From the IMG/VR virus record IMGVR_UViG_3300014944_000002: a stretch of 6,603 nt of DNA. One strand, given 5' to 3'. The position numbers and the translations under genes are program-made. The notes under the pieces were generated by a model. That model searched no databases, was not told where the DNA came from, and saw only the letters and a program-made list of their open reading frames with translations. Every line of letters starts with the position of its first letter. The stretch's first letter is position 1. Positions 190-5,068 of the stretch are shown in pieces. The stretch is from a virus.

Positions 190-229
190 ATGCACTGGCT
201 CGTGATGAGTCGGTGCATTTTATTTTTAT
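190..229 (+). terminator. Rho-independent terminator downstream of VP2
   Basis: ATGCACTGGCTC (190-201) pairs with GAGTCGGTGCAT (207-218). That gives 12 bp including 2 G-U pairs and a 5-nt loop GTGAT, followed directly by TTTATTTTTAT (219-229). It sits 33 nt after the VP2 stop. Confidence 0.55.
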
Positions 230-254
230 AGCTGTTCTCTTTTGTGCGGTAGCA

Positions 255-280
255 AAACGGGTTTCACATCTAGCCCGTTT
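255..280 (+). other. GC-containing stem-loop in the main intergenic region
   Basis: AAACGGG (255-261) and CCCGTTT (274-280) form a perfect 7-bp inverted repeat with a 12-nt loop. It is followed by a C-rich tract (ccttcccctctcgtcc) and has no T-run, so it is not a classical terminator. Confidence 0.5.
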
Positions 281-356
281 CCTTCCCCTCTCGTCCGAGA
301 TTGGCAAAAGTGACACCAACAAAAATGCAAAACATGTTGTATAACATATAATTTAA

Positions 357-388
357 TTTGGTATATTGTTCATTTCCCCTTATCTTTG
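357..388 (+). promoter_or_regulatory. Bacteroides-type promoter: -33 TTTG (357-360), 20-nt spacer, -7 TATCTTTG (381-388)
   Basis: Exact match to the Bacteroides primary-sigma consensus TTTG / TAnnTTTG with spacing in the reported 19-21 nt range. It lies in non-coding DNA, about 28 nt upstream of the first small ORF (ATG 416) and downstream of the VP2 terminator. Confidence 0.45.
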
Positions 389-401
389 TAGTGTAATAAA
401 A

Positions 402-408
402 AAGGAGA
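402..408 (+). promoter_or_regulatory. Shine-Dalgarno-like AAGGAGA upstream of ATG 416
   Basis: AAGGAGA lies 7 nt upstream of ATG 416 (8 nt from the AGGAG core) but only 1 nt from ATG 410. This is why I prefer 416 as the start. No comparable purine box precedes any other gene in the window. Confidence 0.4.
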
Positions 409-415
409 TATGATT

Positions 416-595
416 ATGAAAACAGAAAAAATTTATTCTTGGGTATTAAGAATTTCTAATTCTTTAACTAATGAGGTTGAATATCGCACTCGTATGTATT
501 TAACTACTACGGAAATTGAACAAGAGGCTGAGACTCTTATTTCTAATAATAGAGATTTGTATGTGGCTATCTTTAAGCTTCATAAAATGTATTGA
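416..595 (+). CDS. Small hypothetical protein, 59 aa (paralog A of a tandem small-ORF family)
   Basis: ATG with a well-spaced SD. Third-position T richness resembles the core genes. The stop TGA (593-595) is 2 nt from the next ATG. The protein aligns without gaps to the next ORF (MxxxKxYSW...N.L..EV.YR....LT....E..A......N.......F). ATG 410 is an alternative start. Confidence 0.7.
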   Translation: MKTEKIYSWVLRISNSLTNEVEYRTRMYLTTTEIEQEAETLISNNRDLYVAIFKLHKMY

Positions 596-597
596 TT

Positions 598-798
598 ATG
601 GTAGCAAAGAAAAAATATTCATGGCTTTTTCTCTATTATAATGTTTTGAAAGGTGAAGTCTGCTACAGGCTTCACCATGAATTGACAGTTGACGATGTTG
701 AGTTTCTTGCTAATGAATTTTGTAAGGCGAATAGTGGTTATTGTTTAGGTGTTTTTTTAAATTTCAATTCTACAAGAAAAGTCCTTTTTGATAAATAG
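598..798 (+). CDS. Small hypothetical protein, 66 aa (paralog B)
   Basis: ATG 598 lies just after the stop of paralog A. By my hand alignment about 17 of 56 positions are identical to paralog A. The 5' ends also match at nucleotide level (tgattatg, then gaaaaaat..tattc.tgg). Codon bias resembles the core genes. The track start at 592 is a TTG. Confidence 0.7.
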   Translation: MVAKKKYSWLFLYYNVLKGEVCYRLHHELTVDDVEFLANEFCKANSGYCLGVFLNFNSTRKVLFDK

Positions 799-801
799 TT
801 C

Positions 802-832
802 CCCGCGTGGATTTCGTGCACTTAAGCGCGGG
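802..832 (+). other. GC-rich stem-loop between small ORF B and small ORF C
   Basis: CCCGCG (802-807) pairs with CGCGGG (827-832), a 6-bp all-GC stem with a 19-nt loop that contains the palindromes GTGCAC and CTTAAG. It starts 4 nt after the TAG at 796-798. Confidence 0.5.
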
Positions 833-874
833 CTAACTTTCAATTATATTACTAACAATTTAAAATTTACAATT

Positions 875-1066
875 ATGAAATTACTTATGACTGTACAACC
901 GAAAACCGGTGAAAAACCTTTGTCCCTAGTGTTGATTGATACAAACGAAAGTGACTTGTGTCGTCTTGCTGATGATTTTCTTCGTACTGGCGATAATGTT
1001 CTGATTTTTCAGCCTGTAGCTGAATATCACGCTGCCCCCTGCGGAGACTGTGACAAAAAAGAATAG
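875..1066 (+). CDS. Small acidic hypothetical protein, 63 aa, with C-terminal H-x3-C-x2-C. Possible distant third family member
   Basis: ATG 875 is the first ATG after the 802-832 hairpin. The track start at 788 is a TTG that would read through the hairpin. The protein is MKLLMTVQPKTGEKPLSLVLIDTNESDLCRLADDFLRTGDNVLIFQPVAEYHAAPCGDCDKKE. Its LADDF....G...VLIF block resembles LANEF....G...GVF in paralog B. The stop is followed by a long T-tract. Confidence 0.62.
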   Translation: MKLLMTVQPKTGEKPLSLVLIDTNESDLCRLADDFLRTGDNVLIFQPVAEYHAAPCGDCDKKE

Positions 1067-1344: not shown

Positions 1345-3066
1345 ATGTCTGATAAAGTTCGTAATTTTTTTAATCGTTGCGAGCATCCTCGCATAATAAA
1401 GAATAAGTACACAGGTGAGCCCGTTTATGTTAAATGTGGCGTTTGTCCTCATTGTTTGATTTCGCGTTCTGACGCGAAAAGAAACTTGTGTGATTATGAA
1501 AAGTGGAATCGTAAGTATTGTTACTTTGTAACACTTACTTATAATTCTCAGTATGTTCCTAAAATGGCACTTGTGCCTATTGAAGATTATGAATTTGATT
1601 ACCCTATAGGTAAGAATTGGCCTGCTGTTCGTTCTCAGCTTCTTACGCGTATGAAGCTTGACCCTCGTGTAAAAAAACAGGACAATGGGCAGGACATTAA
1701 TATGTTTACCTGTAAGGTAAATTTTCCTTATATAGATGAACATTTGAAATCTATATATGATTCCTGTGCTGCTGCTGCTGAGTTTCGAAAAAATTACAAA
1801 CCTAAGTACGCTTCTCCTGCTCGCCCCTATATTCTTCGTACTATTCCGCGCATGTCTAAGTTGCATAATTTCAAAGATGTTCAGCGTGAAGAGCTTGTTT
1901 GGATATCTCCCGAAACTGTTGAGAAACTTAAGGCGAAATCTAAATGCGAAGGTAATGATAATGCCTTTCCTCAATTTAAAGGACTCCTTAAGTATGTAAA
2001 TTATCGTGATTATCAACTTTTTGCGAAACGTTTCCGCAAATATTTATTTACAAAAATTGGTTCATATGAAAAAATATCTTCATACGTTGTATCGGAGTAC
2101 TCTCCTAGGACATTCCGCCCGCATTTCCATATCTTATTTTTCTTCGACTCGGACGAAGTCGCCGAAAACATTCAACAAGCTGTATATCAGAGTTGGCGCC
2201 TCGGTCGTGTCGATACGCAACTTGCAAGGGATTCCGCCGGTTCATATGTATCGGGCTATCTTAATAGCCTTGTGTCTCTCCCCAGCATTTTTACGGACGT
2301 CTCGTTTACAAAAAATAAGTCGCGGTTTAGCAACTTATTTGGATATGAAGGCTTTCGACAGACAGTTAAAACTCCTGAACAGGCAGTCGAGCGCTTATCT
2401 GAGCGAATACGCTTTGTCCGTAATGGTAAGCCTTGCGAATTCAATCCCCCCGTTTCGTATATCTCTAGATTGTTGCCCACATTCGTACCATACAGCAGTA
2501 ATTTTTCTGTCGAAACTCGAACAGTTCTTACAGCAATTCGAGGTATATTACAACTCTTTAGACGAAACGAGCCCTTTAAAAAAGAAACTCCAACAAACAT
2601 ATCCGGTTTTATTCACTCCTATATAGTAACTTTGTATGAAAAGTATGGTTATCGGTATGATACTCTTCCTGAGTGTCTTCGTGTTTATCTTGCTTATACG
2701 CGGTCTGCTAAAGAAATTTCTTATTTCACTGATAGACTTAAGAATAAGCTTTGTCGTCCCCTTTATATATATCGTATTTGGGAGTCTCTTGGTCTTTCTG
2801 ATGATTATATTATTTCTTTATCTGATGAATATATGTCTAGGTGTCGGTCTATGTCCCTAGAAAAGCAATTGAGTATTCAGCAAGAAATGTTCGAGCGTGA
2901 AGGTTATTCGGATGAACTTTTATCTTTGTTTTATATTAATAAACCTCAAATGAAATTTAATAATCGTTATTTTCAGGAATGGAAAGATAAGAATTACTAT
3001 GAAGTGCATTATATTCGCGTAAAACATAAGAAATTAAATGATGAAAATAATGTATTTCTAGAATAA
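1345..3066 (+). CDS. VP4: Replication initiation protein VP4 (HUH rolling-circle endonuclease, phiX174 gene A family), 573 aa
   Basis: N-terminal Cys cluster C-x..-CGVCPHC. Motif I is FVTLTY (1525-1542). The HUH motif is PHFHILFF (HFH at 2122-2130). The twin-tyrosine motif is YVSGYLNS (2245-2268), compare YVAKYVNK in phiX174 A. ATG 1345 is preferred over the in-frame TTG 1315 used by the track. Confidence 0.93.
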   Translation: MSDKVRNFFNRCEHPRIIKNKYTGEPVYVKCGVCPHCLISRSDAKRNLCDYEKWNRKYCYFVTLTYNSQYVPKMALVPIEDYEFDYPIGKNWPAVRSQLLTRMKLDPRVKKQDNGQDINMFTCKVNFPYIDEHLKSIYDSCAAAAEFRKNYKPKYASPARPYILRTIPRMSKLHNFKDVQREELVWISPETVEKLKAKSKCEGNDNAFPQFKGLLKYVNYRDYQLFAKRFRKYLFTKIGSYEKISSYVVSEYSPRTFRPHFHILFFFDSDEVAENIQQAVYQSWRLGRVDTQLARDSAGSYVSGYLNSLVSLPSIFTDVSFTKNKSRFSNLFGYEGFRQTVKTPEQAVERLSERIRFVRNGKPCEFNPPVSYISRLLPTFVPYSSNFSVETRTVLTAIRGILQLFRRNEPFKKETPTNISGFIHSYIVTLYEKYGYRYDTLPECLRVYLAYTRSAKEISYFTDRLKNKLCRPLYIYRIWESLGLSDDYIISLSDEYMSRCRSMSLEKQLSIQQEMFEREGYSDELLSLFYINKPQMKFNNRYFQEWKDKNYYEVHYIRVKHKKLNDENNVFLE

Positions 3067-3079
3067 TCATCTTTTATTT

Positions 3080-3283
3080 ATGAAAATTACTCCGCAACAA
3101 TGGATTGAGGTAGTTAAATTGATTTCTACTTTTATTATTGGGCTTATTACAGCCTTGTGTGTTCAGTCTTGTACTGCGTCTATGTCTGTTTTTTGGAAAA
3201 ACAGTAATTCAAAACAGGATAGTCGACAGACTATAGAACAGTCTGTTGATTCTACTCGTATTAATGTTCAACCAAATTTTTAA
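3080..3283 (+). CDS. Small membrane, signal-anchored or lipoprotein-like protein, 67 aa
   Basis: ATG lies 13 nt after the VP4 stop, and the stop lies 3 nt before the VP1 ATG. The protein has MKITPQQWIEVVK, then the hydrophobic stretch LISTFIIGLITALCV, then QSC-TAS and a polar 35-aa tail. Packing and codon bias argue that it is expressed. Confidence 0.7.
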   Translation: MKITPQQWIEVVKLISTFIIGLITALCVQSCTASMSVFWKNSNSKQDSRQTIEQSVDSTRINVQPNF

Positions 3284-3286
3284 ATT

Positions 3287-5068
3287 ATGAGTTTATTTTC
3301 GTTAAAGGACATTCGTAATCATCCTAGACGTTCAGCTTTTGACCTTTCGTCTAAGGTTGCTTTTTCGGCTAAATCGGGTGAACTTCTTCCTATTAAGTGG
3401 TATTTTACAATGCCTGGTGATAAGTTTACTTTGAAGCGTCAACATTTTACTCGTACTCAACCTGTTAATACCTCTGCGTACACTCGTATTCGTGAGTATT
3501 ATGATTGGTTTTGGGTTCCCTTGCATCTTTTGTGGCGCAATGCTCCTGAGGTTATTTCTCAAATGCAGTCTAATGTTCAGCATGCAGGTTCGCAAACTTC
3601 TGCGTTAACTCTTGGTAATTATTTACCGACTATTACTAATGCTCAATTGAAGTCTTGCCTTACTAATTTGAAGGATAAAACAAATTATTTTGGTTTTAAC
3701 CGTTCAGATTTATCTTATAAACTTCTACAATATCTTCGTTATGGTAGCTGTAGTAGTGATAATGAAGTTTTTGGGACTTCTGTTAAATATTCGACTTCTT
3801 ATTCTCAGGATTTTCGTTTCGATTTGAATTTGAGTGTTTTCCCTTTGTTGGCGTATAAGAAATTTTGTCAGGATTATTTTCGTTATTCGCAGTGGCAAGA
3901 TTCAAGCCCGTATTTGTGGAATATAGATTATTTTACTGGAGTTTCTCAGCGTTTATTTTCGAATATTCCTTCTTCTGGTGATTCTTATTGGAAAAGCAAT
4001 ACATTGTTTGACCTTGAGTATTGTAATTGGAACAAGGATATGTTTATGGGTGTGTTACCGGATACACAATTTGGTGATGTAGCTTCTATTGATACAGGTG
4101 GATTTAAATCTCAGGATTTGTATGTTGAAGTGAAACCTACATCTTCTTCTTCTTCACGTTTATATCTTGGTGAGAAGACGTCACCTACTGGTACTTGTTT
4201 TTCTGTTAATGCTGGTCCTTCTGCTGTTCCGTCAAATCCGTTGGTAGTTACTATGCCTTCGATTTCTTCATCATTTGATGTACTTGCTCTTCGTCGTGGT
4301 GAGGCTCTTCAACGTTGGAAAGAAATTTCTTTGAATGTTCCTCAGAATTATCGTTCGCAGATTAAAGCCCATTTTGGTGTTGATGTTGGTGAAAACATGT
4401 CGGGTATGTCTATTTATGTCGGTGGTGATTCATCGTCTCTTGATATATCTGAGATTGTTAATACCAATCTTCAGTCTGGTACTTCTCAGTCTGAAGCCGT
4501 TATAGCTGGTAAGGGTGTTGGTTCTTCGCAAGGTTCTGAAAAGTTTGAGGCTCGTGATTGGGGTGTATTGATGTGTATTTATCATAATGTCCCCTTATTG
4601 GATTATGTTCCTTCTGCTCCAGACCCGCAATTGTTTGTCTCTCAGAATACGGATTTGCCTATTCCAGAACTTGATTCTATTGGTATGCAATCTATTCCTA
4701 TATCTATGTATTCTAATAGTAATTTGGAGTTGGTGACCGGATTTAGTTCTTCCGATTTTACTATGGGTTATTTGCCTAGGTATTATAGTTGGAAGACTTC
4801 ATATGATTATGTTTTAGGTTCATTTACTACCACTGAGCAAGAATGGGTTGCTCCTATTACGCCTGCTATTTGGAAGAATATGTTGTCTACTGTTTCTACG
4901 GCGTCTTCTTCTATCACCTATAATATTTTTAAGGTGAATCCTTCTGTTTTGGATAGTATTTTTCAAGTGAATGCTGATTCAAAATGGGATACAGACCCAT
5001 TTTTGATTAATTGTGCGTTTGATGTTAAAGTAGTTCGTAATTTGGATTATTCCGGAATGCCTTATTGA
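3287..5068 (+). CDS. VP1: Major capsid protein VP1 (Microviridae F-like jelly-roll capsid), 593 aa
   Basis: The N-terminal block RRSAFDLSSKVAFSAKSGELLPIKW..MPGDKF...HFTRTQPVNTSAYTRIREYYDWFWVPLHLLW matches, from memory, the conserved Alpavirinae-type VP1 N-terminus. Size, position and strong T3 codon bias are consistent. Confidence 0.94.
   Translation: MSLFSLKDIRNHPRRSAFDLSSKVAFSAKSGELLPIKWYFTMPGDKFTLKRQHFTRTQPVNTSAYTRIREYYDWFWVPLHLLWRNAPEVISQMQSNVQHAGSQTSALTLGNYLPTITNAQLKSCLTNLKDKTNYFGFNRSDLSYKLLQYLRYGSCSSDNEVFGTSVKYSTSYSQDFRFDLNLSVFPLLAYKKFCQDYFRYSQWQDSSPYLWNIDYFTGVSQRLFSNIPSSGDSYWKSNTLFDLEYCNWNKDMFMGVLPDTQFGDVASIDTGGFKSQDLYVEVKPTSSSSSRLYLGEKTSPTGTCFSVNAGPSAVPSNPLVVTMPSISSSFDVLALRRGEALQRWKEISLNVPQNYRSQIKAHFGVDVGENMSGMSIYVGGDSSSLDISEIVNTNLQSGTSQSEAVIAGKGVGSSQGSEKFEARDWGVLMCIYHNVPLLDYVPSAPDPQLFVSQNTDLPIPELDSIGMQSIPISMYSNSNLELVTGFSSSDFTMGYLPRYYSWKTSYDYVLGSFTTTEQEWVAPITPAIWKNMLSTVSTASSSITYNIFKVNPSVLDSIFQVNADSKWDTDPFLINCAFDVKVVRNLDYSGMPY

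Follow-up and report, generated by a model that had tools for sequence, protein, structure and literature searches.

The small open reading frames (ORFs) A and B of the microvirus analysed here occupy a variable slot in the genome, which in close relatives is sometimes empty and sometimes holds members of several other gene families. The window under study (6,603 nucleotides, IMG/VR record IMGVR_UViG_3300014944_000002) had been described in a first-pass annotation as harboring a tandem array of three small related ORFs, correctly placed in the accessory arm, which is lineage-specific and separates VP2 (the pilot protein) from VP4 (the replication protein); the positions assigned to the three ORFs, and the 2 nt separating the stop of A from the start of B, were likewise right (Table 1). 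A plain three-ORF reading nonetheless misses the main feature of this region, namely that the same slot contains other families, or nothing, in close relatives. Small genes that are duplicated, lost, fused and replaced between close relatives form a pattern associated with host-acting phage genes. Few phages in the human gut are more abundant than microviruses, which have been thought to be nearly devoid of accessory genes (PMC9239249).

The slot is bounded on its left by a promoter, and on its right by a conserved stem-loop, an origin-like motif and gene C. Across 55 distinct related arms, it contains from zero to three head-to-tail genes of ∼60 codons (here termed ‘cassettes’), which belong to at least four sequence families and follow a fixed order: A, N or E in first position, F or B next, and D last. 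Seventeen architectures were found in these 55 arms, in addition to N followed by B, and B alone. In the pairs A-B, A-D, F-D, E-D and N-F, the two cassettes meet at the junction ttTGATTATG, along with a conserved 3′ end of the first of them, and this junction may couple their translation; junction remnants remain where the upstream cassette has been lost. Internally deleted or truncated remnants of A and B (L012, L087, L049, L081), a fused A-B ORF on five contigs, and F/D chimeras were also observed; the deleted and truncated forms show the cassettes to be individually dispensable. Profile comparison using hhalign found no relation between family D and A/B/F, E/N or C (P = 0.19 to 0.94). Active exchange is one account of the fixed order, but loss of different genes from an ancestral array of three explains it equally well.

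Table 1. Features of the slot and its flanks, in coordinates of the window.
Feature	Position	Strand	Description
Terminator-like hairpin	190-228	+	12-13 bp stem, then T-run; downstream of VP2 stop at 157
Conserved non-coding block	238-356	+	Upstream of promoter; contains hairpin 255-261 / 274-280
Bacteroidetes-type promoter	357-388	+	-33 TTTG, 20-nt spacer, -7 TATCTTTG; 28 nt before A start codon
AGGAG, Shine-Dalgarno-like	403-407	+	8 nt before ATG at 416
ORF A	416-595	+	59 aa; slot-1 cassette, A/B/F family
Cassette junction TGAttATG	593-600	+	A stop, 2 nt, B start
ORF B	598-798	+	66 aa; slot-2 cassette, A/B/F family
Conserved stem-loop	797-838	+	11-pair stem, almost invariant 17-nt loop GGATTTCGTGCACTTAA; right slot edge
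Near-invariant TAACTTTCAATTATATTACTAACA	835-857	+	Resembles phiX174 viral-strand origin core
ORF C	875-1066	+	63 aa, acidic; conserved core gene of the lineage

The proposal that A and B arose by local duplication and then diverged is borne out by comparison with shuffled controls, which indicates that the two genes are true paralogs derived from a tandem duplication. The proteins share 17 identical residues of 59 in a gapless alignment, and their local BLOSUM62 score of 66 lies far above that of shuffled sequences (21.7 ± 4.0; z = 11.1), none of 2000 shuffles scoring as high. The match reported between their 5′ ends at the nucleotide level is also real (28 of 45 bases identical from -9 to +36), and extends in register over the whole genes (87/180 bases), with p < 1e-4 against shuffles in both cases. 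The exact A protein is encoded on 12 contigs and the exact B protein on five. The A/B/F family to which they belong comprises 446 unannotated protein clusters, in which every member is 59-66 aa long, and is found solely on ∼6.5 kb human-gut microvirus contigs; a set of 1.84 billion proteins contained only 38 representatives.

No accepted match to A, B, C, D or E was obtained in Pfam, PHROGs or PADLOC scans, and A and C have no Pfam or PHROG family at E-values up to 1; the same Pfam and PHROG scans did recognise VP1 and VP4 of the window. B matched EutB weakly (E = 0.03; 13.6 bits, where the cut-off is 25), which was put down to chance, and profile searches of PDB sequences returned annexin and capping-enzyme noise only (E > 0.2). 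The A and B proteins display no sequence similarity to any characterised protein in Pfam, PHROG, PADLOC or PDB sequences, and literature searches turned up no account of the gene family or the array.

ORF C, in contrast, was found in all 77 of 77 related loci, and its family consists of 531 clusters. Its acidic character (pI 4.7) and its C-terminal end, H52-x3-C56-x2-C59, were as noted in the first-pass annotation. The similarity claimed between C and B is not above chance, the A-C and B-C scores both falling below the shuffle mean (z = -0.6), and the suggestion that C is a third, more distant member of the family is not supported, no significant resemblance to A or B emerging from either pairwise or profile alignments: comparing the profiles of the A/B and C families with each other gives P = 0.002 to 0.02, with a probability of 2-15%. 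Since C scores at chance, by sequence the array comprises two paralogs and an unrelated-looking neighbour, rather than three relatives; judged on these alignments, C appears to be a separate, universally conserved and strongly constrained gene that is no sequence paralog of A or B.

Predicted structures also bear on common ancestry. The AlphaFold2 model of A, built from the family alignment (pLDDT 92.9), contains strands at residues 6-15 and 21-30, a helix at 31-44 and a strand at 48-55, with the invariant residues of the A/B/F family (W9, Y23, F53) located in the three predicted strands. The model of C (pLDDT 84) displays the same strand-strand-helix-strand order (strands 2-9 and 17-22, helix 25-36, strand 41-47), followed by a low-confidence CxxC tail. 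It is possible, though we regard it as doubtful, that A, B and C all derive from one ancestral gene, of which C would be the oldest and most constrained member. A and C are alike in length as well as in secondary-structure order; they share structural neighbours in Foldseek searches (Dmd, 5hy3_B and 5i8j; PaaB, 3egr); and in each of three independent profile comparisons the helix and last strand fall into one register (P = 0.002 and 0.019 for A/B/F against C, 0.027 for E/N against C). Family E/N, which looks unrelated in pairwise comparison, matches A/B/F over its full length at P = 4e-4, showing how far members may drift. Against common ancestry stand the pairwise scores and low hhalign probabilities given above, a pattern of conserved residues in C that differs (TVQPKxGEKP, D22, Q46, E50, Y51), and a fold simple enough to have arisen independently.

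Among the best full-length PDB neighbours of A in Foldseek is Dmd of phages RB69 and T4 (probability 0.93-0.97), with TM-scores of 0.65/0.67 (5hy3_B) and 0.65/0.61 (5i8j_A) at E-values of 0.3-0.8, which are not significant; C aligns with Dmd at 0.53/0.57. None of the Foldseek matches is significant (E-values 0.1 to 0.8), and folds of three strands plus a helix are widespread: PaaB, GIY-YIG nucleases (in their N-terminal core) and many unnamed small phage proteins score equally. Phage-encoded Dmd binds two defence toxins of the host, RnlA and LsoA, directly and in this way inhibits them (PMC8266594). Like the cassette products, it is a single compact domain of ∼60 aa; unlike them, it is encoded by a single gene rather than within a variable array, in phages that differ from this ssDNA microvirus in type and in probable host phylum, and it shows no sequence homology to the cassettes (Pfam, PHROG, and a PDB-sequence profile search at E-values up to 10).

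Several other candidate relationships were rejected. T4-like Seg/homing enzymes of the GIY-YIG class are neighbours in BFVD (TMq 0.61-0.64), as is I-TevI in the PDB, and the cassettes correspond only to the N-terminal core, spanning ∼55 residues where the full domain has roughly 90 or more; a GIY-YIG nuclease identity was discarded given the 59-66 aa length, the lack of a Pfam GIY-YIG match and the lack of a catalytic part. The few long proteins retrieved by a representative-library search were also set aside: the match to P0258 was a repeat artefact (11 near-identical weak matches), and P0262 proved to be an Ig-repeat protein. Three NUMOD/HTH multi-repeat entries (P0264, P0268, P0269) gave many weak matches of ∼22 residues to the segment YYN....V.YRL..GW(S/T). 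The cassettes were not accepted as NUMOD1 or I-TevI-type HTH repeats, because each match is weak and the segment forms a confidently predicted strand hairpin in A (pLDDT ∼97).

The first-pass annotation credited the array with its own promoter, which can now be specified. A sigma-70 scan performed no better than shuffles (24 sites found, 22.4 expected), and we therefore used the motif TTTG-N20-TAnnTTTG, which we take to be the Bacteroidetes sigma-A consensus. The full motif occurs once in the genome and is present in 58 of 59 related arms, in most of which roughly 15-35 nt separate it from the first cassette (more where a leader has been inserted). The AGGAG preceding A is indeed the sole such sequence on the + strand; it is not a conserved feature, since just some of the relatives have GGAG here.

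Upstream of the promoter, the terminator-like hairpin (13-pair stem, loop of 3, then TTTATTTTTA) has a predicted folding energy of -18.7 kcal/mol (z = -3.5), none of 200 shuffles being as stable, and probably ends a genome-length transcript. With the elements so arranged, the slot would form the 5′-proximal part of that transcript. The non-coding block between hairpin and promoter is near-invariant in 52 relatives, including GenBank viruses with VP1 only 62% identical, and at one pair of its internal hairpin (columns 39/61) A-U is swapped to U-A in 19 sequences. Rfam searches of the whole window and of the inserted leader of L007 returned nothing above noise.

At the right edge of the slot, the stem-loop is supported by covariation: 91% of cells are paired across 68 distinct sequences, against only 23-47% in slid controls, and compensatory double changes occur in 8 of 11 pairs (93 cells), a level reached in 0 of 500 shuffles. 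The origin of phiX174 reads CAACTTG^ATATTAATAACAC, and the motif that follows the stem-loop accordingly shares with it AACTT and 11 of the 12 bases of ATATTA-TAACA. The origin-like pattern occurs once in the window, and its resemblance makes it a lead only as a putative replication origin. Two non-coding elements conserved next to the slot are candidate replication origins, which in non-phiX microviruses have yet to be mapped.

A host-directed accessory role, which the first-pass annotation had raised as speculation, is made more plausible by the new evidence. We tentatively favour, at somewhat less than even chances, the proposal that the cassette products, made ahead of all others from the main transcript, are dispensable, evolve fast, and serve anti-defence or takeover by binding proteins of the host. 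Each cassette would encode a single compact domain of strand-strand-helix-strand topology, comparable in size and shape to the T4 antitoxin Dmd, which would bind a host protein stoichiometrically early in infection, thereby counteracting a defence or toxin, or diverting a host function. Which cassettes a given genome carries would then mirror the host strains that it meets, and their gain, loss and exchange would presumably result from recombination or slippage where conserved junctions lie beside the putative replication origin. A far more specific version, which we consider decidedly unlikely, would make this the first anti-defence locus recognised in Microviridae, an ordered set of Dmd-like mini-inhibitors, each directed at one Bacteroides defence or toxin target, and turned over through rolling-circle errors at the adjoining viral-strand origin.

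The organization of the slot recalls the acr-aca (anti-CRISPR or anti-defence) operons of phages, with which it shares poorly conserved, promoter-proximal small ORFs that are variably present at a fixed site (here 17 architectures in 55 arms) and followed by a small conserved gene. It differs from them in that the conserved neighbour C has no helix-turn-helix in its AlphaFold2 model and no Pfam match, and in that the cassette order is fixed; among the libraries searched, which included PADLOC for defence systems, no cassette resembled a characterised anti-defence protein.

Proximity to the origin-like element could point to a role in replication instead. The cassettes may serve phage replication or packaging by modulating VP4, the origin-like stem-loop or the switch to single-strand synthesis, comparable to the non-essential phiX174 protein K or to protein C, thereby tuning burst size rather than acting on defence. 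phiX174 encodes small accessory proteins with replication or burst-size roles. The slot adjoins the covarying stem-loop and the phiX174-like motif, C and VP4 lie just downstream, and domains of this three-strand-plus-helix type are able to bind nucleic acid, with RepB′ primase and the little-finger domains of Y-family polymerases being further Foldseek neighbours of A. We nevertheless consider a replication role unlikely: unrelated families interchange in the slot, which may be empty or decayed, yet VP4 and the stem-loop are nearly invariant, and a conserved partner is not expected to drive diversification. Moreover, neither A (pI 6.6) nor B (pI 8.5) is basic. Other small microvirus proteins, some of them non-essential, include phiX174 K and C and gokushovirus VP5 and ORF8, and the cassettes have no Pfam or PHROG match to phiX174 C, K, J or E, or to gokushovirus VP5 or ORF8. 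Unlike these known small proteins, the cassettes are not overprinted and not basic, and lie between VP2 and VP4 with their own promoter. Microvirus surveys report a limited accessory repertoire, with unexplained small proteins averaging ∼65 aa (PMC9239249).

Competition between phages offers a further explanation, in which the cassettes would confer superinfection exclusion or immunity against related microviruses, and their diversification would track rival phages rather than host defences. Genes that are first on the predicted transcript, dispensable, variable and lineage-restricted would suit such a function, as would the many close variants in human-gut samples. This reading is very doubtful, in that the proteins lack the membrane segment typical of exclusion proteins that act at entry, and show no similarity in Pfam or PHROG to repressors or known exclusion factors.

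At the protein level, the cassettes evolve at two to four times the rate of C or VP4 (omega 0.17 for C and 0.155 for the VP4 N-terminus), and retain only their hydrophobic-core residues. The expectation of protein-level selection on the array holds for A, which is under purifying selection (omega 0.41, 95% CI 0.24-0.72; lowest of the three reading frames), and only marginally for B (0.60, CI 0.36-0.98; ORF open in 16 DNA sequences). Values for F (0.39) and D (0.38) resemble that of A, with CIs below 1 and the lowest value in the annotated frame. In B, the last 13 codons are in a frame that differs from that of its relatives, owing to a TT insertion in the T-run at 752-758. It is extremely improbable that the ORFs are non-functional, their frames persisting by chance or through DNA conservation, even though in the 16 sequences of B dN/dS is alike in all three frames and stretches lack both synonymous and nonsynonymous change, its tail tolerates a frameshift and cassettes are repeatedly lost, given the omega values of A, F and D, the persistence of open A/B/F ORFs across hundreds of clusters at 27-95% identity, and the confident model of A with invariant residues in its strands.

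Slot content varies among otherwise near-identical genomes, which makes the slot an obvious place to search for the means by which 6.5 kb phages handle the many defences of Bacteroidota. This lineage most likely infects Bacteroidota, and the earlier guess of a Bacteroides host fits the conserved Bacteroidetes-type promoter. The only match in an isolate genome, a 3.5 kb contig in a Chitinophaga silvisoli assembly, may be contamination and was not counted as evidence. The one Bacteroides microvirus in culture, phiHBP1 of B. fragilis, has a VP1 only 42% identical to that of the window, and carries no homologue of A, B or C. As a cultured virus of a neighbouring clade, it provides a possible chassis (PMC13064476). 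The cassette proteins are small enough for bulk synthesis and screening, and the conserved promoter, junction and stem-loop supply exact boundaries for cassette swaps in a synthetic genome.

The window (6603 bases) is a complete microvirus genome, in which ORFs A and B occupy an ordered cassette slot of variable content behind a conserved promoter; both are dispensable, and their evolution outpaces that of the core genes. In 59 related arms (the corresponding regions of related microvirus contigs, 55 of them distinct), we located the end of the pilot-protein gene, gene C and VP4, and listed the content between them. The slot contained cassette type D alone in 12 arms, F+D in 10, A+B in six, N alone in five, nothing or remnants in four, F alone and A+D in three each, G alone and E alone in two each, and H, B, A, N+D, E+D, A+F+D, N+F+D and a fused A~B in one each; N+B and B alone were added by eight further B-directed look-ups. 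Cassette order is constant: A, N or E comes first, F or B second and D third, with C after them. Near-identical A alleles (93-95%) adjoin B, D or F+D, depending on the genome.

Arms without intact cassettes hold recognisable cassette wreckage. One A (L012) carries an internal deletion joining its first 8 codons to its last 7, another (L087) is a 33-aa protein without the second strand and helix, and a third arm (L049) combines a truncated A with B fragments. An A-B fusion (L009 1349-1732) forms one ORF of 127 aa on 5 contigs, and two proteins (P0266, P0277) are natural chimeras of an F N-terminal half and a D C-terminal half, joined at the helix start, which hints that D shares the same architecture. 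From this varied content, and from the wreckage, fusions and chimeras, it follows that the cassettes are individually dispensable and the locus dynamic.

Internal cassette junctions all read ...ttTGATTATG... after the final codons of the preceding cassette, which are themselves conserved, regardless of the families joined. A junction remnant is retained in some D-only genomes, and the start of A, gatATGATTATG, is similar to an internal junction. The Bacteroidetes-type promoter motif TTTG-N18-22-TAnnTTTG, present once in the window, is kept in 58 of the 59 arms, including those of distant GenBank relatives; it ends ∼15-35 nt upstream of the first cassette start codon in most arms, and farther away where a leader is inserted. 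AGGAG is, as had been proposed, the sole copy on the coding strand, and an SD-like GGAG is found in some arms only. The strong terminator-like hairpin and T-run downstream of the pilot-protein stop codon (z = -3.5) suggest a single genome-length transcription unit starting at the promoter; judging by these motifs, the slot would be the first part of the genome-length mRNA to be transcribed and translated. Some relatives (L007 2429-2608; also L037, L079 and L090) carry an insert of ∼100-150 nt between promoter and first cassette, closed by GGGAAA...UUUCCC with a U-run behind it, features suggestive of a structured leader or attenuator; the insert matches no Rfam family and folds with unremarkable energy.

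Features of the window and their coordinates
Feature	Coordinates	Remarks
76-aa ORF	114-344	rejected as spurious
Terminator-like hairpin and T-run	190-228
Conserved non-coding block	∼238-356
Covarying hairpin in block	255-261/274-280
Promoter motif	357-388
AGGAG	403-407
ORF A	416-595	59 aa
ORF B	598-798	66 aa
T-run in B	752-758
Stem-loop	797-838
Near-invariant 3' flank of stem-loop	835-857	candidate nick site
ORF C	875-1066	63 aa
GC-rich hairpin	1153-1188
Stretch with recurrent pseudo-ORF	1209-1334
Replication initiator VP4	1345-3066	recognised by Pfam and PHROGs
67-aa ORF	3080-3283
Major capsid protein	3287-5068	recognised by Pfam and PHROGs

The first-pass annotation, which described A, B and C as an array of small related ORFs, placed all three correctly; its observations were largely accurate and its interpretation partly so, but it understated the main feature, the variable slot. 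A and B are genuine paralogous genes. Their products agree at 17 of 59 positions without gaps (local alignment score 66 vs 21.7 ± 4.0 in shuffles, z = 11.1), and the genes match in register at 87 of 180 nucleotides (28 of the first 45). The proposed kinship of C was not upheld: A-C and B-C alignments fall short of the mean for shuffles (z = -0.6), and the LA(N/D)(E/D)F block and H-x3-C-x2-C tail, although both present, do not reach significance. C, a core gene in its own right whose product has a similar topology, belongs to a separate family (531 clusters) and was found in 77 of 77 related loci collected; common ancestry with A and B is doubtful.

A profile search placed 446 clusters (at 90% identity) in the A/B-like family, all of 59-66 aa and almost all on ∼6.5 kb contigs, and when 1.84 billion representatives were searched exhaustively with a profile, only 38 matched, the credible ones all small proteins. 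A, B and F are subfamilies of a single family; E and N form another, which can be aligned with A/B/F along its whole length (P = 4e-4), and D shows no sequence relationship to these. Neither the A/B-like proteins nor C match Pfam, PHROGs, PADLOC or PDB sequences. Long NUMOD/HTH repeat proteins were rejected as relatives, their matches tracing to a short repeated motif.

Nei-Gojobori estimates of omega, with codon-bootstrap 95% confidence intervals, were 0.41 (0.24-0.72) for A, 0.39 (0.25-0.60) for F, 0.38 (0.24-0.57) for D, 0.17 (0.11-0.26) for C and 0.60 (0.36-0.98) for B (16 DNA sequences), with a point estimate of 0.155 for the VP4 N-terminus. The annotated frame has the lowest omega of the three for A, F, D and C; omega for B is similar in shifted frames. 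The outcomes that would have refuted the first-pass annotation do not hold for A and are only weakly excluded for B, in which invariant blocks (LTVDDV, EFCKAN) are broken up by variable positions. The T-run near the end of B is T7 in the window vs T5 in relatives; the same TT insertion recurs in ENA assembly L032, which is independent, and 5 contigs carry the exact B protein. Because this insertion puts the last 13 codons out of the relatives' frame, the tail of B after the last strand is unconstrained.

The 76 nt between B and C are more than a plain linker and contain a stem of 11 pairs whose 17-nt loop, GGATTTCGTGCACTTAA, is almost invariant. Compensatory double changes affect 8 of the 11 pairs among 68 distinct sequences; the observed values were reached by 0 of 500 shuffles, and shifted pairings are only 23-47% paired. 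In 63 of 68 sequences the stem closes with U:G, so the folding strand is the plus strand, as ssDNA or mRNA. The near-invariant 3' flank, TAACTTTCAATTATATTACTAACA, shares AACTT and 11 of 12 bases of the AT-rich part with the phiX174 viral-strand origin core CAACTTG^ATATTAATAACAC, but has 5 extra spacer bases; on this sequence likeness, it is possibly a VP4 nick site. No coding region is as conserved as the non-coding block that precedes the promoter, even where relatives' capsids are only 62% identical. The block contains a covarying hairpin in which 19 sequences swap A-U for U-A; it is possibly a complementary-strand origin or other cis element. Together with the origin-like stem-loop region, it makes up a pair of candidates for the two replication origins. 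The 76-aa ORF overlies this block. The spacer between C and VP4 contains a GC-rich hairpin (at least 12 pairs, z = -4.1), followed by a stretch with a 41-58-aa pseudo-ORF (MLIGAFCTIYL...LRGAQI.SNSVACV) whose recurrence in many relatives is probably due to conservation of the DNA itself and not to a coding function.

AlphaFold2 models built from family alignments predict the same order of elements in A (pLDDT 92.9; strands 6-15 and 21-30, helix 31-44, strand 48-55) and C (pLDDT 84.2; strands 2-9 and 17-22, helix 25-36, strand 41-47), with the CxxC tail of C at low confidence. The invariant A/B/F residues W9, Y23 and F53 fall one per strand, and few other positions are conserved. The best full-length PDB matches to the A model are the Dmd antitoxins of RB69 and T4 (TM ∼0.65 under either normalisation, probability 0.93-0.97), with PaaB scoring similarly; both are also among the matches to C. 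All E-values for A and C lie between 0.1 and 0.8, and the likeness is therefore a resemblance and not a demonstrated relationship. Most BFVD neighbours are small phage proteins without a name, a few of these belonging to Microviridae; the N-terminal core of GIY-YIG endonucleases is also among them.

By analogy, we tentatively favour the reading that the cassettes are host-directed inhibitors: they are small, single-domain and variable, come first after the promoter, are confined to one phage lineage and conserve little outside strand residues, which is how such inhibitors usually look. The predicted Dmd-like shape would fit, as Dmd, a phage protein, directly inhibits the defence toxins RnlA and LsoA (PMC8266594). 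A phage-internal role in replication, the main rival, would suit the origin-like element adjoining the slot and is rather improbable, as unrelated families interchange whereas VP4 and that element are almost invariant; possibly, the cassettes mediate inter-phage exclusion. The slot is of a kind known from phages, the variable accessory or anti-defence gene island, and its function is inferred. New is the presence of such an island in Microviridae, a phage family without a described example. Microvirus surveys (PMC9239249; PMC3394797) record the occasional methyltransferase or peptidase and small proteins, on average 65 aa long, that are unexplained, but no accessory metabolic genes; our literature searches turned up no account of the A/B family or the cassette slot.

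The window derives from contig IMGVR_UViG_3300014941_000046, and most relatives come from human-gut metagenomes. The Bacteroides fragilis phage phiHBP1, the first microvirus of Bacteroidota to be brought into culture, has been placed near the Bajarodmic, Dulem and Tortoise viruses (PMC13064476). Its capsid is only 42% identical to that of the window, and the phage lacks A, B and C genes. After its Rep gene lies a 54-aa ORF (L102 490-654, minus strand; MEEKKYYFAVLHYMGHKRRVAIRLDS...) with, by eye, a strand-strand-helix-strand-like hydrophobic pattern and no significant similarity to A or B. A C homologue (81% identity) is encoded on a 3476-nt contig (L091; NZ_QTJV01000043.1) from an isolate assembly of Chitinophaga silvisoli; this contig is a contaminant or else hints at a Bacteroidota host outside the gut. 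In the GenBank relatives Dulem virus 256 and bajarodmic viruses 585 and 849, the capsid gene is followed by those for the scaffold and pilot protein, then by two small hypothetical genes, the replication initiator and a further small gene. These relatives also keep the 67-aa ORF between VP4 and the capsid gene, a candidate membrane, lipoprotein or lysis protein with a hydrophobic segment that ends in a lipobox-like ...ALCVQSC.
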